From Thermoanaerobaculia bacterium (GTDB lineage: Bacteria; Acidobacteriota; Thermoanaerobaculia; Gp7-AA8): a DNA stretch of 46,683 nucleotides. Numbering within the stretch: position 1 is the first letter of the stretch; the number at the start of each line of letters is the position of its first letter. The stretch covers positions 1 through 46,683 of the forward strand of contig JBAQWH010000603.1 of the NCBI GenBank assembly GCA_049298815.1, given 5' to 3'. Below the pieces are notes generated by a model. It made no database searches. It was given only the letters and a program-made list of their open reading frames with translations, and had not been told where the DNA came from. This document shows, one piece after another, positions 12,953 to 23,384 of the stretch. The position numbers and the translations under genes are program-made.

Positions 12953-13432
12953 TCACACTCCGTGTGACGGCGTGGACAGCGGGCGAAGCTCGTAGATCTC
13001 GATCGTCAGCGCGTGCGCCCGCGCCGCCCATTCGATGATCGCGCGCGAGCTCGGCTGCGCGCACTTCTTCGCCGCGCCGGGTTTCGCGATGAACACGAGC
13101 CGCTGAACCGCGTGTCCGGCGTCCTGCGCCATGACCGCCTTCAGGATGTCGCGTTCGAACTCGGAGTTCGGGTTCCGGAGGCCCATCGCGATCTCCACGA
13201 TCGTCGCATCGTCGGGGAAGTAGTAGTCGACGCAGAGGCCGTTCTCGCCGCAGATCTTCCGTTCGGCGAAGTCTTGGCCAAAGACATCCGCCGCCCGACG
13301 CCGCAACTCCTGCATGAAGGCCGCGGTGTCCTTATCGCCGACGCTCGGACCCTTGACCTCGAAGAGCGTCGGACGCTCAGTGGCCAGTTGCTCGGCGAGG
13401 CGCAGTAGGCGCGCGGCACGATCGTCCACCAT
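12953..13432 (-). CDS. Hypothetical protein (possible degenerate PD-(D/E)xK fold)
   Basis: Ordinary, non-repetitive amino-acid composition. ATG 13432 is preceded by AGGAG (13450-13446), which overlaps the upstream stop. The segment 'CVDYYFPDDATIVEIAMGL' is only weakly nuclease-like. Confidence 0.55.
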   Translation of the reverse strand: MVDDRAARLLRLAEQLATERPTLFEVKGPSVGDKDTAAFMQELRRRAADVFGQDFAERKICGENGLCVDYYFPDDATIVEIAMGLRNPNSEFERDILKAVMAQDAGHAVQRLVFIAKPGAAKKCAQPSSRAIIEWAARAHALTIEIYELRPLSTPSHGV

Positions 13433-13442
13433 TCCGGATCGT

Positions 13443-13835
13443 TCACTCCTCGTCGACGCGACGGTATCCGCGCCCCTCACAGTCGGGGCAGTGGACGAGC
13501 ATCGGTTCCGTCCGCGGTTCTCCGGTGTAGACGTTGAGGTGGTGCCGCTCCGGCGGAATGCCGCCGGCGTTCAGTCGCGCCGTAACGGCTTCGGCGTCGG
13601 ACGTCATCCCCTTCCCATTGCAGCGACGGCACAGGAGCAGGAGCACGTCCGGCCTCGTGGAAATGTAGAAGAAGTTCGGACCGTCGGGGTAGGGCGGCGG
13701 CAACGGAACGAGGACGGCCCGTTCGGGCGATGCGGCCGCACGCTGCGGTGGATCGGTAGGTACACGGCCGGCGGGTTTCGCACGGCGAGGCTCCGCCGGA
13801 TTCGATCCGAACAGCGTACGCAACCAATCCCACAC
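13443..13835 (-). CDS. Hypothetical protein with a DnaJ-type CXXCXGXG zinc finger
   Basis: Two CXXCXGXG motifs ('CRRCNGKG' and 'CPDCEGRG') follow a Pro-rich N-terminal region. The start is GTG at 13835. Confidence 0.55.
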   Translation of the reverse strand: MWDWLRTLFGSNPAEPRRAKPAGRVPTDPPQRAAASPERAVLVPLPPPYPDGPNFFYISTRPDVLLLLCRRCNGKGMTSDAEAVTARLNAGGIPPERHHLNVYTGEPRTEPMLVHCPDCEGRGYRRVDEE

Positions 13836-13923: not shown

Positions 13924-14229
13924 TTACTTGATAGCGGCGAGTGCGGACGCCGCGATGGCCATCGCGCCCAGCGCGAGAAGCGCCCCGAGGGCCATGAGCT
14001 TGAGAACGCGCGACCCTGCGCGTTTCTCGGATTTCAGAAGGCGGGCGCGGAGGTCGTTGCCGACCGCCGCCGCCTTCGTCTCCACGCCGTTGCAGGCGAA
14101 ACAGCGCGCGATGAGACTCGAGAGCGGGCCGTCGTCGATGATGAGGTTCTTGAGGTACTCCTCGCGGCCACGCCCGAGACAGGCGGAGCAGAGACGCGAA
14201 GAGCGGACCTCCATCCAGACGCCGGTCAT
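13924..14229 (-). CDS. Hypothetical tail-anchored zinc-ribbon protein
   Basis: It has 'CSAC...CFAC' (a four-Cys ribbon) and a C-terminal hydrophobic helix 'LMALGALLALGAMAIAASALAAI'. ATG 14229 overlaps the upstream stop as ATGA (14226-14229). Confidence 0.55.
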   Translation of the reverse strand: MTGVWMEVRSSRLCSACLGRGREEYLKNLIIDDGPLSSLIARCFACNGVETKAAAVGNDLRARLLKSEKRAGSRVLKLMALGALLALGAMAIAASALAAIK

Positions 14230-14663
14230 CGGGAAGGGACGTGAAGGACGAGGTACGTGGGCAGCGGCCGGAAGACGCCGCGATCCATCTCGATGGATTC
14301 GAGGAGTTCGTCCTGCGCTTCGAGGTAGCTGCGCCCGCTGTCCATCGCGGACGGACGGGTGTCGATGACCCATTCGTTCTCGTCGGGGACGACGCGACGC
14401 GCGAGTCGTTCTTCCCGCAGGGCGCGGCGGTACTGCTCCCGGCGCTCGGCCTGGCTGCGCGGAAGGCCTTCGGAGCGAGGGAGCCGCTGATAGCGCAGAC
14501 CCTGGGTCGCACGTCGAAGGTTGTCGATGTGCGCGTACGCCTCACGGGGCGTCATGGACCGGAAGGATCGTCCTTCATCGACCGAACGGAACTCCGCCGT
14601 TCGGGAAAACATCGCAGCGAGCTTCTGATAGAGCTCGCACTGTGCCTGGGTGGGCATGAGCAT
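14226..14663 (-). CDS. Hypothetical protein (145 aa), first gene of the small-protein operon
   Basis: Non-repetitive composition, ATG start at 14663 or 14657, and ATGA-coupled to the next gene. I recognise no family motif. Confidence 0.5.
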   Translation of the reverse strand: MLMPTQAQCELYQKLAAMFSRTAEFRSVDEGRSFRSMTPREAYAHIDNLRRATQGLRYQRLPRSEGLPRSQAERREQYRRALREERLARRVVPDENEWVIDTRPSAMDSGRSYLEAQDELLESIEMDRGVFRPLPTYLVLHVPSR

Positions 14664-14820: not shown

Positions 14821-15687
14821 CTACGCGGAGGCGGCGCGGAGGAGACGCTCGAGGATGACGCCCTTGAGGCTCGCCGGATCCGCCTTCGGCAGCAATACGC
14901 GGATCGCCGCGCGGCCGAGTTCCTCCTTGAGACGCGCAGCCGCTTCGTCGCCCGACGAGTCGTGATCGAAGAGGATGCAGACCCGCGAGAAGCGACTGAG
15001 GAGCGCGCGCTGCGCTGCGGTGATCCGGCAGCCGAGCGATGCAACCACATGCGGAAAGCCGACCTGGAACACGCCGAGCGCGTCGAAGATGCCTTCGACG
15101 AGGATGACGGTCTCCGCGCCGGAAGCCTTCACCCGGTGCAGGTTGAAGAGGAGCTCACGACGGCGAACGCCGCGCTGGAAGCAGTAGCGGGGTTCGACGG
15201 CGTCATCGACGGCACGGCCGATGTGGCCGACGAGGGTGCCGTCTGGAGCGTGGAGCGGCGCGATGATCCGTCCGCCGAGCGGAGGCCGGCCGCGGAAGTA
15301 GCCGAGTCCGAAGTGCCGCGCCGTCGCCTCGTGGATCCCCCGCTCGAGGAAGTACGGATGCGTGGGATCGAGCGGCGTGAGCGGGACGACCGGCCCAATG
15401 CGTTCGGGACGTTCGTGGGCAGTTGGGCGGACGACGTCGAGCGGATCCTCTCCACGCATCCGCGCGACGAACTCCTCGATGCTCCCGCCCTCCCCGCACG
15501 CGAAGCAGAAGAAGCCGCGACCGGGGGTGAGCGCGAACGAGGAGACCCGCGTTCCGTGATGGAGCGGGCATGGCCCGCGCCACTGCGAGCCGTGCCAGGT
15601 GAGGTCGAGGCGGAACTCCTCGATGAGGTTCTCCCATGCTTCACGCGTCACGGGAGTCTCCGATGCCGACAAACCTCCGACGGTCAT
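14821..15687 (-). CDS. DnaG-like primase-related protein (CHC2 zinc finger plus TOPRIM)
   Basis: CHC2 finger 'CPLHHGTRVSSFALTPGRGFFCFACGEGG'. TOPRIM Glu in 'VILVEGIFDAL' and DxD in 'ILFDHDSSGDEAA'. The start is ATG 15687, with alternatives GTG 15651 and the track start 15735. All of them overlap the end of the upstream ATPase gene. Confidence 0.75.
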   Translation of the reverse strand: MTVGGLSASETPVTREAWENLIEEFRLDLTWHGSQWRGPCPLHHGTRVSSFALTPGRGFFCFACGEGGSIEEFVARMRGEDPLDVVRPTAHERPERIGPVVPLTPLDPTHPYFLERGIHEATARHFGLGYFRGRPPLGGRIIAPLHAPDGTLVGHIGRAVDDAVEPRYCFQRGVRRRELLFNLHRVKASGAETVILVEGIFDALGVFQVGFPHVVASLGCRITAAQRALLSRFSRVCILFDHDSSGDEAAARLKEELGRAAIRVLLPKADPASLKGVILERLLRAASA

Positions 15688-18565
15688 CCGGCTTTGGGAA
15701 ACGAAGCCAGCGCCACACGCGCTGCTGGACACCATCCACGAGACGGCGGACGGCGGCGGGAATGTCCTTCTTCTGCGTTCCGCTCGGAATCGCGAGCGGA
15801 AGGTGATCTCCGCTCGTGATCCACAGCGGCGACCGCGCGTCGCCGAAGACCGCGCGCGCCCCCTCGAAGAACTTCTGCTCGATCGCGTCGGTGCGCGTCC
15901 ACACGACGACGCGAAGTTCCGAGTCCGGCTCGGATACCTGTCCGTCGAAGGTGCGGCCCGCGTAGAACGCCTTGCTGATCGCCTGAAGCTTCCACGCTTT
16001 CACCGCGGCAAGGTCGCTCGCGTCTCGCTCGCCGAATCCGGTCTCTACCTCTCCGAGGATGATGTCGCGGATCATCCGTCCGTTCTTTTCGCGAATCGCG
16101 ACGAACGAGAAATCCGGCACGTAGGCGGTCTTCTGGAGATCGGGACCGAACAGCGGACGAAGGCGATCCGGGATCGCGCTCCCGGACAGATCCAAACGCA
16201 CGGACCTCTCGCGATCGAACCGGACGTCATCCACTCGCGCACCGCGGCCGACGAGACTCTGCATGAGCAACGTCTGCAGCGTCGACGACCAGAGGCGGTG
16301 CTCGGTCTGCGCGGGTCGATTCGACTCAACCGTCCGGCGGAAGACGCCGAGGTTCTTTGCGATCCGGCGGAGGTTCTCGTTCTCAACGTCATTCGCGGAG
16401 AGACGGTCCGCCCCCGCCGTCGTGAGGATGTAGATGATCGGTGCGGAACCCTCGCCGCGGGGCGCGAACCGCCGCACCGAATCCGCGTATCCGGCCTTCA
16501 CGAGAGACTGCAGTTCGCGAGCGGCCTTGTCGTAGCTCCAATCGAGAACAGCGAGGATGTGCTGGATCGTGCAGAGACGCACGAGGGCGATGACGCGAAG
16601 CAGTTCGATGCCGCGGTCCGCCGTCGGAGTGACGGGCGAAAGCGACACCGGAATGTCAGGTGCCGCCTCCGGGGTGGGTGTCGACTTCGCCGACCGTGGG
16701 GGCTTCTCGGTGGAACGGGACTTCGCCGGGGGGCGGGGCACGTCGACGTTCCCGAGCGCGTTGCCGGCGAGCGTGATGGCCGGGGCGAACGGCTTCCGTG
16801 CCACCGCTTTCGCCTTCCAGTAGTGATCGTGCCAGCGCGTGTAGTACTCGAGCGCGTTCACCCCTCCGATCTCCTCCGGGAACTTCCTCGGCGGGTCCAT
16901 GTCGATCTCCACGGCGTTGCCGCCGTAGCTCCAGGTCGCCTGGTAATCGGGGCGGCGGAGGAGCGCCTGCGCGCCGACCGACAGCTGCTCTTCGAACGGA
17001 ATGCGGATGATCATTTCAGCGAATGCCGCGCCGACCGTCGTGCCGAGCGTCGTGCTGCGCGAGCCGCCGGTCGATGAGGAGCTGCCATGACTGTCCGACC
17101 ACCCGTTGCCGCGCTGCGCCTGCCGGGAGAGACGGCGGTTCTCGCCGAGGTCGTCCGCCGAATCGCCGCTGGACGCGCTTTCGTTGCCGGTGATCGATGA
17201 CGAAGAGTTGATTGCTTCCTGCCACGAGTCCGTCAGCGTTTCCGAGGACGTGCGGCTCGTCGAGTCCGTACGCGTGAGCAGCCGGTGCAGCACGCCCATC
17301 GGATCGATAGGGTGCGTGCGAAGGTAGAGCTCCTTCGCCTGCTGCATTGACGTCGGCCGCCAGTCGGCGTTGAGGCTGCAGACCGATTCGCGGATGTCGG
17401 CCATCTCGTCGATGCCGGCGGCCTTCCACTGCGCGATGTTCTGGAACAGGAGCCAGGTCGAGATCCCGAGATTCCTCGCCTGCGCCATGTGCGTGAGGAT
17501 GGACCGTGGAACCCACTTGTCGGCCTCATCGAGGAAGTAGTGCAGCAGGTCGTACCTCCCACTTCCGGGGCTCCGCAGGGCGAAGTGCGCGCTGTTGATC
17601 GCGTGCACTGCAAGGAAGGCTTCCTTTCGGAGTGTCTCGTTCGGGAGATCGGTCGTGAGGAAGAAGCGTCCGTTCCCGTATGTCGCTTCCGCCGGATCGT
17701 ACGTCTCGTCGGAGCCGAAGAACGTGCCGAGCGCCGTCCCCTCGTCGTAGTCGTCCATGCTGTTCGCGAAGCTCTCCGTGCGCTGCTCGAAGACGGACTT
17801 CGGCAACGCGCGGAGTTCGAGGAGCTTCTGGAGCTGACGCTGGACGAAGATGTCGGCCGCGAGACCGTTCGCCTCGATTTCGCGCAGGAGGAACTGGAGG
17901 TAGGCGTCATCGTCCTTGTCGAGCGGCCGTGACCACTCGCAGATGCTCCGTCCGGCGGCGACGAGGACCGTGAGGACGATCTTCGCCGTACGCCGGAACC
18001 GCACGCGGAGATCCATGTCGTCGAAGCGCATGCTAAAGACGTTCAGGACGCGATCCACGACTTCCTGGACTGACTCCATCGTGCCGTCGGGGCGGCGACG
18101 CCGCTTCATGATGTCGATCCGGATCGGATTGTCTCCGCGGTACGAGATCGTCCCGAATGCGAAACGCCGGAGGAACCAGTCCGTCGCGCCGGTGAGGATC
18201 TCCGGGAACATCCTCTCGAGCGTCATGAGGATCGTCCCGAGAAACGCCTTGTGCGTCCGTGCCGCGTGAAAGCCCGTTCCGATGAAGTCCATCGCGATGA
18301 GCGCCATGTCATCGAAGGGCGACGCGAAGTCGAGTTCCTGCCCGGTCGTCGTCTTGCCGGCGCCCGTCTTGCCGTTCATGGCGACGTTCATTTCCGTCGA
18401 CCAGAGCGGGAGAGATACCGGCGCGCCGTCTCCGACGCGCCGCCCCAGATAGATCGATGGCACCGACGGGAGGAACGACCGCAGCGCCCGGAGGAAACGC
18501 GGCGGTCCGATCTCAGCGACGCTGTTCGACGTCGATCGGCGTGACGTTCGAGCGGGTAAAAACAT
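15641..18565 (-). CDS. FtsK/HerA/T4CP-like P-loop ATPase fused to a replication-relaxation-like wHTH/nuclease-fold C-terminal domain
   Basis: Walker A 'NGKTGAGKTT' is preceded by 'IYLGRRVGDGAPVSL'. Walker B is 'LHYFLDEADKW'. 'ARNLGISTWLLFQNIAQW' is coupling-protein-like. A Ser/Thr-rich linker follows. The C-terminus has 'LLRVIALVRLCTIQHILAVL...LVKAGY' (wHTH) and 'YVPDFSFV...ILGEVETG'. There are no N-terminal TM helices. Confidence 0.65.
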   Translation of the reverse strand: MFLPARTSRRSTSNSVAEIGPPRFLRALRSFLPSVPSIYLGRRVGDGAPVSLPLWSTEMNVAMNGKTGAGKTTTGQELDFASPFDDMALIAMDFIGTGFHAARTHKAFLGTILMTLERMFPEILTGATDWFLRRFAFGTISYRGDNPIRIDIMKRRRRPDGTMESVQEVVDRVLNVFSMRFDDMDLRVRFRRTAKIVLTVLVAAGRSICEWSRPLDKDDDAYLQFLLREIEANGLAADIFVQRQLQKLLELRALPKSVFEQRTESFANSMDDYDEGTALGTFFGSDETYDPAEATYGNGRFFLTTDLPNETLRKEAFLAVHAINSAHFALRSPGSGRYDLLHYFLDEADKWVPRSILTHMAQARNLGISTWLLFQNIAQWKAAGIDEMADIRESVCSLNADWRPTSMQQAKELYLRTHPIDPMGVLHRLLTRTDSTSRTSSETLTDSWQEAINSSSSITGNESASSGDSADDLGENRRLSRQAQRGNGWSDSHGSSSSTGGSRSTTLGTTVGAAFAEMIIRIPFEEQLSVGAQALLRRPDYQATWSYGGNAVEIDMDPPRKFPEEIGGVNALEYYTRWHDHYWKAKAVARKPFAPAITLAGNALGNVDVPRPPAKSRSTEKPPRSAKSTPTPEAAPDIPVSLSPVTPTADRGIELLRVIALVRLCTIQHILAVLDWSYDKAARELQSLVKAGYADSVRRFAPRGEGSAPIIYILTTAGADRLSANDVENENLRRIAKNLGVFRRTVESNRPAQTEHRLWSSTLQTLLMQSLVGRGARVDDVRFDRERSVRLDLSGSAIPDRLRPLFGPDLQKTAYVPDFSFVAIREKNGRMIRDIILGEVETGFGERDASDLAAVKAWKLQAISKAFYAGRTFDGQVSEPDSELRVVVWTRTDAIEQKFFEGARAVFGDARSPLWITSGDHLPLAIPSGTQKKDIPAAVRRLVDGVQQRVWRWLRFPKPDDRRRFVGIGDSRDA

Positions 18566-19499
18566 CGGCGCCTCCTCCGCGGTTGTACGAGTTGAACGTG
18601 GTGCGGATCTCGTCGAGGAACCCCATCTTGCGGGCCTGCTCCTCGAGGTCGAGGAAGTGCTGGTACTCGCGGCGCGCCTGGTCGAGATCCATCACGAGTT
18701 CCCCGGCATTCTCGAGACGGAGGTTGTGGAGAATCGACGCGTAGGTGTCCGACTCCGCGAGCTTGCGGTCCTGCGTGCGCATGAACCGCTCGATGAACGT
18801 CGAACCGCCGCGCGGGAGCCAGCGATCGTCCCACGTCTTCGGCTCGACCGCACCGATCACCGCGCTGTTCGTATACGACTGCGCGAGGCTACGGAGCAGA
18901 TCGTCGCTCTTCGCTTCCCCGAACGGACGCTGCGAAGCACGGATCTCCTTCTTCGGCTCCGGCTGGAGTGCTGCGTATTCCTGCTGCGCCTTCAGCAGCT
19001 CGGCCTGCGCCCGCACCTGCCTTGTTTCGGCCACGAGGCGCTTCGTCTGGATGTCCGCGAGTGCCTCGGCCTCGCGTTCGGGCCACAGGCGCTGCGCGGC
19101 GTCGTAGTTGAGGTGGAGGTCGAGCAGCTCGAGCCGGATCCCGGCTGCCTCGCGTTCGTATCCGAGGCACCGCACTTCCTGCTCCTTTACATTCCCGTAG
19201 TGCTGGACCCACTCGAGCTCGTCCTGGCGTGCGAGCCGGGACGACTGATGCTCCAGCGTCTGGCAGTCGAGTTCCATCTGGCCGAGCTCGTAGCTCGTGA
19301 GAGGGACGACGGTCGTCGTCGTGATGGGTTCGCGCGTCCCGTTGAGGAACCGATCGACGATGCCCTGCTGCGGCTGGACGGTCGTCGTAATGGACTTCGT
19401 GAACTCTTTCCGCGCGGAACTGACAGCGTTTCCCACGCGATTCACGGGCCGCGGCGGGATGCCGATGCTGCGAACGAGATCTTTCGGATTCTGGCTCAT
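18513..19499 (-). CDS. Hypothetical coiled-coil protein (328 aa)
   Basis: The central region is heptad-like and Glu/Leu/Gln/Arg-rich ('RLVAETRQVRAQAELLKAQQEYAALQ'). The start is ATGA-coupled to the upstream gene (19496-19499). The 3' end overlaps the ATPase start by 53 nt. Confidence 0.6.
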   Translation of the reverse strand: MSQNPKDLVRSIGIPPRPVNRVGNAVSSARKEFTKSITTTVQPQQGIVDRFLNGTREPITTTTVVPLTSYELGQMELDCQTLEHQSSRLARQDELEWVQHYGNVKEQEVRCLGYEREAAGIRLELLDLHLNYDAAQRLWPEREAEALADIQTKRLVAETRQVRAQAELLKAQQEYAALQPEPKKEIRASQRPFGEAKSDDLLRSLAQSYTNSAVIGAVEPKTWDDRWLPRGGSTFIERFMRTQDRKLAESDTYASILHNLRLENAGELVMDLDQARREYQHFLDLEEQARKMGFLDEIRTTFNSYNRGGGADVFTRSNVTPIDVEQRR

Positions 19500-20446
19500 A
19501 GTCTTCCTCCCTGGGCGAGGTGCATGAAGACCTGCCCTTGCTGTTCCTTCTGTCTGTTGATGAGGTCATTGAGATGCCGCTCCTGCGCGAGCATTTGTGC
19601 CTGCTTCGCGTAGAGCGACCGACGAAGTTGTTCGAGTTCCGCTTCACGCGCCGGGATCGCTTCGACGCGCTGTCGAAGCCGATCGCGTTCGGCGAGGATC
19701 GTTGCGAGGTCGCGGCGGGTCGTCGCGAGTACCGATTCCGTCGTCTGGAGCGAGAGTCGCAGGGTTTGTACTTCCCGTTGGGACGCCTCCCACGTTGACT
19801 TCAGCCGCCCGCGAAGACGCTCCTGCTCGGAATTCGCTGCGTGCAGCTCGCGCGAGACGTCGGCGGTCCTCGAGTTGGGGTTGGGATTGTTCGACTGCTG
19901 ACGGGCGAGCGCCGAACGGAGGGTCGTGACTTCGGTCAGGGCGTTGTCGCGTTCGGACATCATGCGGACACTGGACGCTCGCCAGTAATTCAGATCGCCA
20001 ACGAAGTCCCTGACGAGGCGAGCGGCGAGCACCAGGATGAAGACGCCGAGGGTGACCCCAAGCCAGAACGTCGCGGGGTTCTTCTCGCCCGGCAGCTGAG
20101 CGCCCGCGGCGACAACGTCGAGGAGCGTGAGCGTCGAGGCGTCGGTCAGGGGGCCGTTGCCGTCGCGTCGATAGCAGGCGACGCGACGACGATCGTCATC
20201 GGCGTCATACGGATTGCCGACGAGAATCATGTCACCCCAGTGCGTCACCGGTGCGTCGGCGACATGCGCGCGCGACCACGCCCGGATGTCGGCGTACGTC
20301 ACGACTGTCTGCACTCTGTTGGGATGCGACCAGATCGGAAGAGCCTCGCTCGCGGAGACGGACGTGGCGACGATCACATACAGCACGAGGTACGGAACGG
20401 CGCGGACGAGCCGTACGGTGTTGGTCGCTGTTGGATCGGATGCCAT
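19496..20446 (-). CDS. Hypothetical two-TM membrane protein with a cytoplasmic coiled-coil tail
   Basis: Hydrophobic helices 'VPYLVLYVIVATSVSA' and 'FWLGVTLGVFILVLAARLV', then ~150 aa of coiled coil ('ERLRGRLKSTWEASQREVQTLRLSLQ...'). Confidence 0.6.
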   Translation of the reverse strand: MASDPTATNTVRLVRAVPYLVLYVIVATSVSASEALPIWSHPNRVQTVVTYADIRAWSRAHVADAPVTHWGDMILVGNPYDADDDRRRVACYRRDGNGPLTDASTLTLLDVVAAGAQLPGEKNPATFWLGVTLGVFILVLAARLVRDFVGDLNYWRASSVRMMSERDNALTEVTTLRSALARQQSNNPNPNSRTADVSRELHAANSEQERLRGRLKSTWEASQREVQTLRLSLQTTESVLATTRRDLATILAERDRLRQRVEAIPAREAELEQLRRSLYAKQAQMLAQERHLNDLINRQKEQQGQVFMHLAQGGRL

Positions 20447-20482
20447 GGGCCGTCTCCGGATGCTTCGGTCTGCGCCGCGAGA

Positions 20483-20671
20483 TCAGGCGATCGCGAGGCC
20501 GGAGCGCGACGAGGCATGTTCCGGCGCCGCGTCGATGGCATCGTTGAGGATGTTCGTGACGCGCTTCTTCAACTTCTTCAGCGCGTCACGGTCGCTGAGG
20601 CTCACGGTGCGTTCGAGCGATTCGTTCGGAGAGGTGATGACGACAGCGATTTCGGTGTTCGGGATGTTCAT
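20483..20671 (-). CDS. Hypothetical small protein (62 aa), first gene of the ATPase/primase operon
   Basis: ATG 20671 is preceded by AAGGAG with a 7-nt spacer. The track start at 20689 has no Shine-Dalgarno. Confidence 0.5.
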   Translation of the reverse strand: MNIPNTEIAVVITSPNESLERTVSLSDRDALKKLKKRVTNILNDAIDAAPEHASSRSGLAIA

Positions 20672-20904
20672 GTCTTGGCTCCTTTTCATTGACTGCTGGA
20701 GCCGTTATGCCGTGGGAGATGCCGATCTCCGACTGCGTTCTTCACGGGGTGTGCGATGTGGTTGGATTTCTCTTGATGATGTTGGGCGGGCTGGGGGTCG
20801 TCGCTCAGTGCTGCAATTCAGCAGGCGCGATTCGGTACCTAGAAGGCAGGCGACAAATCGACGCGGACCTTGACCAACATCGACGGATCTCGAACACTTG
20901 AGTC

Positions 20905-22881
20905 GTGAAAATCCAAGCACTGACAATCGAGAACTTCCGGTGTGTGCGTTCCGCGCATGCGGACCTGCGCGCGCTCACTGGCTTCGTCGGGCGGAACGGC
21001 GCCGGCAAGAGCACGTTTCTTCAGGCATTGCAGCTCTTCTACGCGCCCTCAGCCACTGTCACGCCTGAGGATTACTACGCCAATGCGACAACCGAGGACA
21101 TCGCTATCCAGATCACGTACGGCGATCTACGCCCTGAAGAGAAGGCGGAACTCGAGGTCTACATGGATGGCGACACGCTGACCGTCACGAAGCGCTTTCC
21201 GGCGCTCGGCGACGGGGCAAAGGGAACGGCCGGCAAGTACTTCGCCAGCCAGCGCGTGTTCCCGCCGTTTCAGTCCGTCCGCAAGGCCACTTCCGCTGCT
21301 GACCGGAAAGCCACATACAACGACCTGATCGATAGCGCCACGTTGCCGCCCGATACGCCGAAGGCGAAGAAGGACTCCGACGTGTACGACGGCATGAAGG
21401 CGTTCGAGGCCGCGCATTCCGAGGTGCTCAAGCGCGAAGAGATGGAAACACAACTCTTCGGCGAGAAGAGTGTCGGGTCGGGGAAGATCGAGAAATTCAC
21501 GCGGTTCGTCTACGTGCCTGCCGTCAGGGACGTCACCGATGAGGCCGCAGACCGTAAAGCATCATTCGCGCAACTACTGGAGCTGGTGGTCACACCGAAG
21601 ATTCAGGCGCGCCCGGAAGTTCAACAGCTTCCAGCGAAGATCCAGGCGCTCGTCGACAACGCGTACGACAAAGCGGTCATCGGACAGGATCTCGCGACGC
21701 TTGCCTCGGATCTAAACGGGGTACTGAAACCGTTCGTCGGCGACGCCCGCCTGAGCTTCGATCTCATCGCCCCGGACGTAAAGCCGTCGGAGCCGCGCAT
21801 CGTCCCCACCGTTACCGAAGATAGTTTCGCCGGCGAGCTCTCTCGCAAGGGGCATGGCCTGCAGCGGGCGATCATCTTTACGGTGCTCTCCCATCTCGCG
21901 CGCATCCGTAGCGGAGCAGCGCCCGAGAGCCAGCCTGATCTTATCCTCGCAGTCGAGGAGCCCGAGCTCTATCAGCATCCCTCGCGTTGTCGACAGATCG
22001 CATCAGTTCTCCGTCAGCTCTCCGAGGCCTCTGCGCCGGGGAACCAAGTCCTCTTCACAACGCACTCCCCCTACTTTCTTGATATCGAGCACTTCGAAGA
22101 CGTGCGTATTGTCCGTAAGGCGCAGGGCGGTGGCGGCGCGGCCGAGTCTGCCGTCACGAAGCTGACCTTCGACGCGATTCGCGAAACGTGGGCCCGGTGT
22201 TGCGAGAAGGAGCCCAAAGAGATCACCCGAACGAGCCTTGCATCGCGTTTGACGAAGCCGTTCCTGACTTCGGCGAGTGAGGGATTCTTCGCCGATGTTG
22301 TCGTTCTCGTCGAAGGCGCAGGCGATGCCGCTCTGCTGCTCCGGCTCGCAGAACGCATGAAGAAGTCATGGGACGAGCGTGGTGTCGTCGTCATCCGCAC
22401 CGATGGGAAGGCAAACCTTGGCGCTCCATGGCTCGTCTTCCAAGCGTTCAACATCCCGACGTATGTGCTCTTCGATGGGGACGTCCGGTATCGGGGTCGT
22501 GGCGGCTCCGATGAGAACCAAGCCACGATGTACAACAAGTTCCTGCAGCGTGCGGGCGGCATCGCGACACCCGAGGCTTTCCCGGCGACGAAGGCCGGAG
22601 CGACGTTTGCGTGTCTAGAGGACGAACTGGAGACGGCCTGCAAGAACGCTGTGGGTGACGAGGCCTACAGCGCTGCTCTTAGCACCGTCGGGATGCAGAT
22701 CGGATCGAAGCCGAGCGAGGTGTTGAACAATGCGACCGGTGCTGCGTTGTTTCTCGATCACGTGTATGACTCCGGTGACCGCCTCCCCTTCGCGGAGCAG
22801 ATCGTGGAAGCGATCACGGCATTTGCGGAAGCCGCGCAGCAACCTCCGATCATCACTCCCGTGCACCAAGAGGTAGCATGA
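20905..22881 (+). CDS. OLD-family nuclease (ABC-type ATPase fused to TOPRIM)
   Basis: The N-terminus 'MKIQALTIENFRCV...GRNGAGKSTFLQAL' carries Walker A. Walker B/D-loop is 'LILAVEEPELYQHP', followed by 'FTTHSPYFL'. The C-terminal TOPRIM is 'VVLVEGAGDAALL...YVLFDGD'. The start is GTG. Confidence 0.85.
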   Translation: MKIQALTIENFRCVRSAHADLRALTGFVGRNGAGKSTFLQALQLFYAPSATVTPEDYYANATTEDIAIQITYGDLRPEEKAELEVYMDGDTLTVTKRFPALGDGAKGTAGKYFASQRVFPPFQSVRKATSAADRKATYNDLIDSATLPPDTPKAKKDSDVYDGMKAFEAAHSEVLKREEMETQLFGEKSVGSGKIEKFTRFVYVPAVRDVTDEAADRKASFAQLLELVVTPKIQARPEVQQLPAKIQALVDNAYDKAVIGQDLATLASDLNGVLKPFVGDARLSFDLIAPDVKPSEPRIVPTVTEDSFAGELSRKGHGLQRAIIFTVLSHLARIRSGAAPESQPDLILAVEEPELYQHPSRCRQIASVLRQLSEASAPGNQVLFTTHSPYFLDIEHFEDVRIVRKAQGGGGAAESAVTKLTFDAIRETWARCCEKEPKEITRTSLASRLTKPFLTSASEGFFADVVVLVEGAGDAALLLRLAERMKKSWDERGVVVIRTDGKANLGAPWLVFQAFNIPTYVLFDGDVRYRGRGGSDENQATMYNKFLQRAGGIATPEAFPATKAGATFACLEDELETACKNAVGDEAYSAALSTVGMQIGSKPSEVLNNATGAALFLDHVYDSGDRLPFAEQIVEAITAFAEAAQQPPIITPVHQEVA

Positions 22882-23093
22882 ACTACGTACCCGTAAGTTC
22901 GACCAATATTGTCGCCGTTGCGTACGACGCGACGACGAGCACGCTCGGCGTACGTTTCCACAGTGGTTCCGAATACGAGTACCGGAACGTCCCGGTCTCG
23001 ATCTTCATCGGTCTCCGTTCGTCGACGTCGGCTGGTACGTACTTCGACCAGAATGTCCGAAAGGCAGGATTTTCGTTCCGTCAGGTCCGATGA
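22878..23093 (+). CDS. KTSC-domain protein (71 aa)
   Basis: 'VSSTNIVAVAYDATTSTLGVRFHSGSEYEYRNVP...GTYFDQNVRK' matches the KTSC pattern, including the central YxY motif. The ATG overlaps the OLD stop as ATGA (22878-22881). Confidence 0.75.
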   Translation: MNYVPVSSTNIVAVAYDATTSTLGVRFHSGSEYEYRNVPVSIFIGLRSSTSAGTYFDQNVRKAGFSFRQVR

Positions 23094-23260
23094 ATCGCGA
23101 CGCGAGATCTTCGATCGAAACCCGTGAGGAGCGTGTTTCGTGTTGTGGTTCAGCAACCCCGCGCTGCGTGCAGACGTGATCCAGTCCTGCGGAAATCCTG
23201 CGCGCAGGGGCATTTTGGTCGCGTTGGAGGCAGTTGGATGGGGTTGGACGAAAACGGCCC

Positions 23261-23307: not shown

Positions 23308-23384
<77 letters not shown>

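Follow-up and report, generated by a model that had tools for sequence, protein, structure and literature searches.

Why would a coupling ATPase and a relaxase be joined in one polypeptide, and does the operon that encodes such a protein serve DNA transfer, DNA replication or defence? The question is raised by a minus-strand operon in a 46,683-nucleotide stretch of DNA from a Thermoanaerobaculia bacterium of the Acidobacteriota (contig JBAQWH010000603.1 of assembly GCA_049298815.1). We call this stretch the window; it is one entire 46.7-kb contig of a genome bin that comprises 775 contigs and is 98.7% complete. The central gene of the operon (15641-18565, minus strand; identified by its open reading frame (ORF), motifs and Pfam) encodes a 974-amino-acid (aa) protein that joins a type IV coupling protein (T4CP) ATPase to a MOBC-type relaxase domain, and it belongs to a seven-gene module that is conserved in relatives beside a tyrosine recombinase. 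Judging from the sequences, the operon probably constitutes the module with which an integrative mobilisable element (IME) at a tRNA-fMet gene processes and transfers its DNA, defence genes being the cargo; transfer, nicking and excision are predictions. A first-pass annotation, made from the nucleotide sequence alone, had described five of the seven genes and offered two readings: the backbone of a decayed or minimal mobilisable element, or a defence system in its own right.

MOBC is the least understood of the relaxase families, and the route by which its nicked strand reaches the coupling ATPase is a puzzle (PMC12857230, PMC6736028). The natural fusion of relaxase and ATPase into one chain supplies a Rosetta-stone argument that the two partners act as one physical unit, and it also offers a compact protein for biochemistry and structure determination. 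The hallmark of the element family is a coupling ATPase without a transmembrane segment, fused to a MOBC relaxase; the lack of a membrane domain, together with the conservation of separate membrane proteins in the operon, suggests that anchoring of the coupling protein has been split off to other polypeptides. The module would explain how a defence island (OLD/KTSC, restriction-modification (R-M) and short prokaryotic Argonaute (pAgo) genes) in an uncultured diderm lineage can move, and its seven genes provide a marker set for a rare family of elements at tRNA-fMet, which for the most part escape the standard relaxase and T4CP profiles.

A relaxase domain joined to a coupling ATPase

The C-terminal part of the fusion protein (15641..16618, minus strand; assigned from PF13814, alignment and a structural model) is composed of a winged helix (residues 650-725) and a PD-(D/E)XK-like core (residues 726-955). 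Residues 656-731 match the Pfam family Replic_Relax (PF13814) at 33.2 bits (cut-off 25.3), which bears out the winged helix and the likeness to replication-relaxation proteins described in the first-pass annotation. The match in the fusion protein is limited to profile positions 1-76 of 191, the winged-helix part; the close relative P0011 covers positions 2-157, and P0115 positions 4-179. In an alignment that took in fused forms, stand-alone forms and bona fide Replic_Relax members, the conserved H756, D818 (of the PD motif) and E839-x-E841 align with the bona fide members, in which the last motif reads E-x-(E/D); the D and the two E residues are invariant or nearly so. A model of residues 640-974 (pLDDT 88, pTM 0.89) has the expected order of a helix, strands bearing the D and the E-x-E, and a helix; D818 opens one strand, and the next one contains E839-x-E841. 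The winged helix is modelled as three helices and a beta-hairpin, and matches MarR-family folds in the PDB with probability 1.00. When the C-terminal model was compared with viral models (BFVD), the best matches were Bacillus phage proteins of ~275 aa (E = 4e-9); MobC-like genes are known in Bacillus phages (PMC3357382, PMC7685451).

PF13814 is the MOBC relaxase family, which includes TraX of pAD1 and MobC of CloDF13 (PMC5357655, PMC12857230). Relaxases of this family are enzymes of the PD-(D/E)XK type in which a winged helix stands at the N terminus and the metal site is D-E-E (PMC3424549, PMC5357655, PMC12857230, PMC6736028), a motif definition that we took from papers citing the original motif study. 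Because Replic_Relax is the MOBC relaxase family, a relaxase is present in the window, and the earlier statement that there is none was mistaken: the domain it had likened to replication-relaxation proteins is itself the relaxase.

The N-terminal half contains the ATPase (residues ~38-424; 17294..18454, minus strand; assigned from motifs, Foldseek and the Pfam matches of relatives). Its Walker A motif GKTGAGKTT lies at residues 65-73, the Walker B motif FLDEAD at 344-349 and the segment LLFQNIAQW (Q-x3-Q) at 372-380, and an all-helical insertion occupies residues ~166-295; the family as a whole conserves GKTGAGKT (65-72), DE (346-347) and Q375/Q379. No transmembrane segment was found by hydropathy in the 974-aa protein. 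All the ATPase features listed in the first-pass annotation could thus be located, including the Ser/Thr-rich linker, and its comparison to coupling proteins was upheld in profile and fold searches. In a Foldseek search of the PDB with the full-length AlphaFold model, which is of moderate confidence (pLDDT 62), the top 37 hits are TrwB, Cagbeta and DotL, with HerA and VirB4 ranking after them; the best is TrwB of R388 (E = 1.7e-5; target-normalised TM-score ~0.48). Among 70 relatives scanned with Pfam, TrwB_AAD_bind matched 32, TraG-D_C 23 and T4SS-DNA_transf 7, while the HerA central domain (DUF87) matched 27 and FtsK 7; relatives P0097 and P0115 exceed the cut-off of the T4CP family profile. 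Because of the fold ranking and the Pfam matches of the relatives, we file the N-terminal half as a coupling-protein-type ATPase that lacks a transmembrane anchor. A HerA-type ATPase was considered and rejected, since HerA stands behind the coupling proteins in the fold search despite the DUF87 cross-matches, and a virus-packaging ATPase was rejected because capsid and tail genes are lacking at six loci.

Between the two halves (16619..17293, minus strand; delimited by pLDDT and composition) two linkers (residues 425-521 and 593-649) flank a small conserved middle domain (522-592). The first linker is disordered, with Ser/Thr making up 34 of its 97 residues. The pLDDT falls below 50 in both linkers and is 57-75 in the middle domain.

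Both halves also occur separately. The 310 relatives of the fusion protein include ATPase-only forms of ~600 aa and relaxase-only forms of ~350 aa, alongside fusions of 940-1120 aa. A self-encoded coupling protein is rare in mobilisable plasmids and IMEs, and those that have one also encode a MOBC relaxase (PMC5704250, PMC7431656). Given this association and the split forms, the fusion unites two proteins that were already cooperating. No paper came up in a full-text literature search for exact phrases that describe a fusion of relaxase and coupling protein, which is weak evidence of absence.

A conserved seven-gene module

The same gene order as in the window is found in five independent metagenomic loci (L001, L002, L003, L005 and L006), with 37-65% identity in the ATPase, and recurrence at five independent loci implies that the arrangement is not due to chance. 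First comes a small leader protein, then a membrane or coiled-coil protein (sometimes two) with little conservation, a 328-aa protein, the fusion protein, a primase, a 145-aa protein and finally a zinc-ribbon protein with a tail anchor. The last four are present in all five loci, whereas the leader and the 328-aa protein are each present in three. In the ORF map of the window, the five genes of the first-pass annotation all lie on the minus strand within 20689-14821, and its genes and positions were correct; its description of a tightly overlapping five-gene operon holds less well, as a gap of 36 nt follows the 62-aa leader gene, not all gene junctions overlap, and the conserved unit consists of seven genes reaching to 13924.

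The primase gene (14821..15735, minus strand; Pfam, NCBIfam and PHROG) overlaps the end of the fusion gene, to which it is translationally coupled, and encodes a DnaG-type primase core. The earlier CHC2/TOPRIM assignment agrees with Pfam, in which Zn_ribbon_DnaG matches with E = 1.7e-8 and Toprim_2 with 1e-13, with Toprim_2/4 above cut-off; the PHROG match is to the DNA primase phrog_47 (6e-41). The zinc-binding motifs C-x-H and C-x2-C are at residues 56-59 and 77-80, EG is at 214-215 and DHD at 257-259. The protein ends ~25 residues past the TOPRIM domain and has no C-terminal helicase (DnaB)-binding domain; against the full DnaG profile TIGR01391 it scores 117 bits vs a cut-off of 283.6. At each of the five loci, a homologue with 49-65% identity comes immediately after the fusion gene, and these homologues favour Met17 (15687), or a position further downstream, as the start.

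The two genes beyond the primase are equally widespread. The conserved 145-aa protein (14226..14663, minus strand) has a homologue at each of the five loci (40-57% identity); it is encoded after the primase in L002, L005 and L006, and in L001 and L003 the gene has been relocated together with its partner. That partner, ATGA-coupled to it, encodes a 101-aa four-Cys zinc-ribbon protein with a C-terminal transmembrane anchor (13924..14229, minus strand). Its homologues (43-56% identity, five of five loci) each have a C-terminal transmembrane segment.

Upstream of the fusion gene, the gene for the conserved 328-aa protein (18513..19499, minus strand) overlaps the preceding gene by ATGA at 19496-19499, as first described, and the ATPase gene by 53 nt. 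Homologues with 51-62% identity hold the equivalent position in L001, L003 and L005; among 5.8 billion proteins it has seven relatives, all unnamed, and it has no match in Pfam, PHROG, PADLOC or the PDB. The preceding gene (19496..20446, minus strand; hydropathy and profile matches) encodes a 316-aa protein with transmembrane segments at residues 13-31 and 127-145 and a coiled-coil C-terminal half, in accordance with the first-pass annotation; the coiled coil is seen as weak SMC/CENP-F-type matches over residues ~164-303. Conservation with the 188-aa and 374-aa proteins of L001, L003 and L005 is limited to the last ~100 residues, and different small transmembrane proteins occupy this slot in L002 and L006. 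We regard the 316-aa protein as a candidate membrane tether for the ATPase.

The first gene, for the 62-aa leader protein (20483..20671, minus strand), lies in an ORF that spans 20483-20689 (68 aa). An AAAGGAG ribosome-binding site and the alignment of homologues place its start at 20671, so that the length of 62 aa stands. Homologues of 58-59 aa with 78-88% identity come first in the operons of L001, L002 and L003. The leader has no above-cut-off family match in Pfam, PADLOC, NCBIfam or PHROG, and we infer that it is a regulator or a relaxosome accessory factor.

The module is rare. Ten close full-length relatives of the fusion protein were found among 5.8 billion proteins, and an exhaustive profile search of 1.84 billion representatives yielded the 310 relatives mentioned above, 41 of them below 1e-30. 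The family occurs in 1 of 401 genomes sampled from the phylum: full-length and C-terminal profiles found no relatives in the other 400. None were found in a one-genome-per-species pattern scan (protein and alignment), among IMG/VR viral contigs or in a PDB sequence search. The genome itself has a second Replic_Relax gene on another contig (C533:5168-6433; E = 1e-12 over nearly the full profile), which adjoins genes for an AAA ATPase and an N6_Mtase-SNF2 fusion and has no coupling protein nearby. In a tblastn search of 72,556 plasmids, neither this protein nor the C-terminal domain of the fusion protein found a match.

Association with a tRNA-fMet gene and a recombinase

In four of the five relatives, a short tyrosine recombinase (214-279 aa) is encoded 1.5-7 kb beyond the primase. 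In the window, the island begins at the 3' side of a tRNA-fMet gene (23308..23384, minus strand; ARAGORN and Rfam). L003, which also has an S24 repressor-like gene, lies, oriented as in the window, beside a tRNA-fMet of almost identical sequence, but other genes separate this tRNA from the module. The flanks of the module vary from locus to locus and often consist of defence genes. In the window, the slot between tRNA and module is filled by cargo genes for an OLD nuclease and a KTSC protein (20905..23093, plus strand; Pfam and PADLOC), and in L003 by unrelated genes of 69 aa and 281 aa. An OLD+KTSC pair, its OLD protein 41% identical to that of the window, also occurs in islands with a stand-alone relaxase-like relative. 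With its fixed place relative to recombinase and tRNA, and its variable surroundings, the module behaves as the backbone of an element.

Just inside the island, ~50 nt beyond the tRNA terminator, a motif scan identified three tandem (A/G)TCCAAC repeats (23223..23248, minus strand). Sites of the form (A/G)TCCAAC-N3-4-TCCAA(C/T) are also found beside the tRNA in L003 and upstream of the module operons in L001, L002 and L003 (L001 7634-7649 and 19286-19301; L002 8198-8213; L003 5930-5945, 7635-7650 and 15528-15543), and the tandem motif was found nowhere else in the ~160 kb scanned. These repeats could be sites for the recombinase, for the winged helix of the relaxase or for a regulator.

The other side of the element could not be traced. 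The window being a whole contig, the far element end lies outside it, and the left contig end has no overlap with any other contig. No copy of the tRNA 3' end was found elsewhere in the window or in L003. Two other contigs of the genome do carry a 46-nt copy of the tRNA-fMet 3' part that is not itself a tRNA gene (C710:112-157 and C656:5247-5292), and C710:233-285 is 83% identical to window positions 23185-23237. The two copies probably represent element junctions at this same tRNA, although they cannot be joined to the window. A genome of the same family (G403) keeps the terminator at its tRNA-fMet locus, diverges before the TCCAAC motif and may carry an insert of its own; it was rejected as an empty site owing to a partial tRNA copy 1.6 kb away.

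Proposed mechanism and alternative explanations

If the operon is the transfer module of an IME, the following mechanism can be envisaged. After excision, the winged helix would bind repeats at an origin of transfer, for which the TCCAAC repeats are candidates, and the nuclease-like core would then nick a single strand. The ATPase half of the same polypeptide, acting as a hexameric motor, would dock on the type IV secretion system (T4SS) of a conjugative helper element and feed the strand in, while the two-transmembrane coiled-coil protein and the tail-anchored zinc-ribbon protein would hold the anchorless ATPase at the membrane and the primase would initiate synthesis of the complementary strand. 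For MOBC relaxases, no covalent DNA adduct has been detected (PMC12857230, PMC6736028), and the enzymes are reported not to remain covalently attached to nicked DNA; fusion to the coupling ATPase would provide the physical link that non-covalent relaxases of this family are missing.

A number of observations weigh against a transfer function or against the assignments on which it depends. In the PDB fold search with the C-terminal domain, nothing scored below E = 1e-3, the weak matches being to MspJI and Cas4-family proteins (E = 6e-3 to 2e-2). TraG-D_C matches the ATPase (residues 341-383) with 18.8 bits, below the Pfam cut-off of 22. The six family members checked have no hydrophobic segment ahead of the P-loop, so the usual membrane domain of T4CPs is absent, and this N-terminal domain is essential in TrwB, PcfC and CloDF13 MobB (PMC7431656). 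As the first-pass annotation had stated, the window holds no T4SS or integrase gene; the attachment (att) repeats to be sought in the flanks were likewise not found within it, and no protein of the genome is closely homologous to the recombinase of the relatives. There are no convincing flanking direct repeats in L002, L003 or L006, no element ends in any relative, and no defined origin of transfer apart from the candidate repeats. T4SS and mating-pore genes were found neither in the window nor in the relatives' loci, and no VirB4-type T4SS ATPase (PF03135, PF12846) was found in the 98.7%-complete, 775-contig genome, so no helper is in sight; a helper may reside in another cell or on DNA that was not assembled. 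As for the recombinase, the window copy may be immobilised, or its recombinase may have been cut off by the contig end.

One alternative is that the operon is a replication module only, with the relaxase-like domain as the nicking initiator by which the excised or plasmid-like element replicates as a rolling circle, the ATPase as a translocase or unwinding motor and the primase serving the lagging strand, and with no transfer. PF13814 is named for roles in plasmid replication as well as relaxation (PMC3424549), the fusion gene is translationally coupled to that of a DnaG-type primase without a DnaB-binding domain, and there is a weak match to the PHROG category of replication initiation by nicking. 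The short recombinases of the relatives and the failure to find a T4SS in the genome would fit as well, as would the Replic_Relax gene of Bacillus phage Izhevsk, which adjoins a Xer-type recombinase and partition genes (PMC7685451). Partition genes were not found at the present loci, however, the ATPase is nearest to coupling proteins rather than to replicative helicases, and the conserved membrane proteins of the operon are unexpected in a purely cytoplasmic replisome; we therefore think a replication-only role unlikely. The second reading of the first-pass annotation, a defence effector, can be rephrased as a relaxosome turned weapon: a conjugation-derived complex in which the ATPase-nuclease and its membrane partners are joined by the TOPRIM protein, acting as a sensor or second nuclease, and which is carried on an integrative element and cuts incoming plasmid, conjugative or phage DNA at the membrane. 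The position of the operon in the island, between OLD/KTSC and the R-M/pAgo array, is suggestive of such a role, and stand-alone relaxase-like relatives are found among AIPR, Mrr, OLD and PLD-SNF2 genes, yet integrases also lie among their neighbours. HerA-nuclease defence complexes appear lower in the fold-match list, and the ATPase weakly matches the PADLOC model mad8 (14.1 bits, E = 6e-3; distant relatives score better, with 7e-18 for P0115), MAD7-MAD8 being an ATPase-nuclease module needed for MADS defence (PMC13662399). The mad8 match, the sole link to a known defence system, is nevertheless generic for the ATPase superfamily, because the model was built from HHpred/PDB alignments (bioRxiv 10.1101/2023.03.30.534895), and neither mad7 nor any other PADLOC model was matched. 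Moreover, the zinc ribbon and core of the primase are intact, and the module is fixed relative to recombinase and tRNA while the defence genes vary, which is the behaviour of backbone rather than cargo. A defence function is accordingly not favoured, and we would rate it as quite unlikely.

A further alternative keeps transfer and dispenses with the helper: the module would export DNA by itself, without a VirB4-type T4SS, in the manner of the single FtsK-like TraB protein of actinomycetes. The failure to find VirB4 in the genome is in line with this scenario, the operon encodes several conserved membrane-associated proteins of unknown function, and a comparable operon of relaxase, translocase and membrane anchors exists in Bacillus phages (PMC3357382). 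The genome (GC about 65%) encodes Omp85 proteins, which marks the host as diderm and means that two membranes would have to be crossed, and the operon contains no outer-membrane or pilus candidate. To our knowledge, there is also no experimental precedent for a T4CP that works without a T4SS, and we consider self-contained export very improbable. Mobilisation of an IME with the aid of a helper, the explanation that we prefer, corresponds to the mobilisable-element reading of the first-pass annotation. The recombinase neighbours, the tRNA-fMet and the variable cargo support that reading, which had missed the identity of the relaxase and was two genes short.

Comparison with known mobilisation systems

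The module is closest to the MobB and MobC pair of CloDF13 (MOBC1 plasmids), although in a fused form. Both systems have a VirD4-type ATPase of their own and a PD-(D/E)XK MOBC relaxase, and neither has mating-pore genes; CloDF13 MobB is a coupling protein that also takes part in relaxation (PMC7431656, PMC5704250). The differences are that MobB and MobC are separate proteins rather than a single polypeptide, that MobB has three essential transmembrane helices whereas the ATPase here has no membrane domain, and that the present module is integrated and includes a primase and five further conserved genes. The comparison was made with published descriptions of MobB and MobC; sequence similarity to plasmid-encoded proteins is below what tblastn detects, and CloDF13 fragments gave no Replic_Relax match. 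The relaxase half resembles TraX of pAD1 in having an N-terminal winged helix, a restriction-endonuclease-like core and a D-E-E metal site (PMC12857230, PMC6736028). TraX, which binds direct repeats distant from nic (PMC12857230, PMC6736028), is however a stand-alone protein encoded on a conjugative plasmid, and no invariant residue in the nuclease-like core of the fusion family corresponds to the Tyr that is reported to be essential in TraX.

Among integrated elements, streptococcal IMEs of the IME_SsalCCHSS3_ND type likewise encode a VirD4 protein of their own and a PF13814 relaxase without mating-pore genes (PMC5357655, PMC5704250), but in separate genes, in monoderm hosts and with different partner genes. 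Outside conjugative elements, the 'DNA translocation operon' of Bacillus phages 0305phi8-36 and SPO1 brings together a MobC-like relaxase, a VirD4-like ATPase and membrane anchors (PMC3357382). Those genes are separate, belong to lytic phages and are dispensable in the laboratory, and no phage structural genes lie near the module described here. MAD7-MAD8 of MADS share with the module the combination of a HerA/FtsK/T4CP-superfamily ATPase and a nuclease in a defence island (PMC13662399); the operon differs from MADS in having no methyltransferase, kinase or specificity genes and no mad7 match.

Accessory genes and neighbouring features

Some features around the module may also belong to the element. 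Downstream of the seven genes, a 175-aa accessory protein (12953..13480, minus strand) is 76% identical to the product of a 150-aa primase-adjacent gene in L003, indicating that at least part of the downstream small-gene cluster travels with the element. Just upstream of the ribosome-binding site of the leader gene, a block of ~30 nt (GGCAT...GGCTCC.AGCA; window 20700-20735, minus strand) is conserved in four elements, with matching blocks in L001, L002 and L003, and may be a promoter or leader element. In L002 (17659-20974), L003 (19823-22703) and L006 (15886-17523), a TPR-like protein of ~540 aa is encoded divergently from the recombinase; it has two transmembrane segments in L002 and L006, and the L003 gene has four internal repeats of 231 nt.

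The contigs that carry the additional tRNA-fMet copies have contents of their own. C710 encodes a 421-aa tyrosine integrase, a helix-turn-helix protein, a DUF2188 protein, a multiubiquitin protein and a JAB-ThiF protein, and the copy on C656 adjoins a gene for an S8 peptidase. Stand-alone relaxase-like relatives of 367-370 aa are in each case followed by an unannotated protein of 310-320 aa (L021 10001-12072; L023 10001-12042). The neighbours of the stand-alone relatives comprise integrases, an S8 peptidase/SLH protein, Mrr, AIPR, PLD-SNF2, OLD+KTSC and Mod/Res, surroundings that fit elements sharing cargo equally as well as defence.

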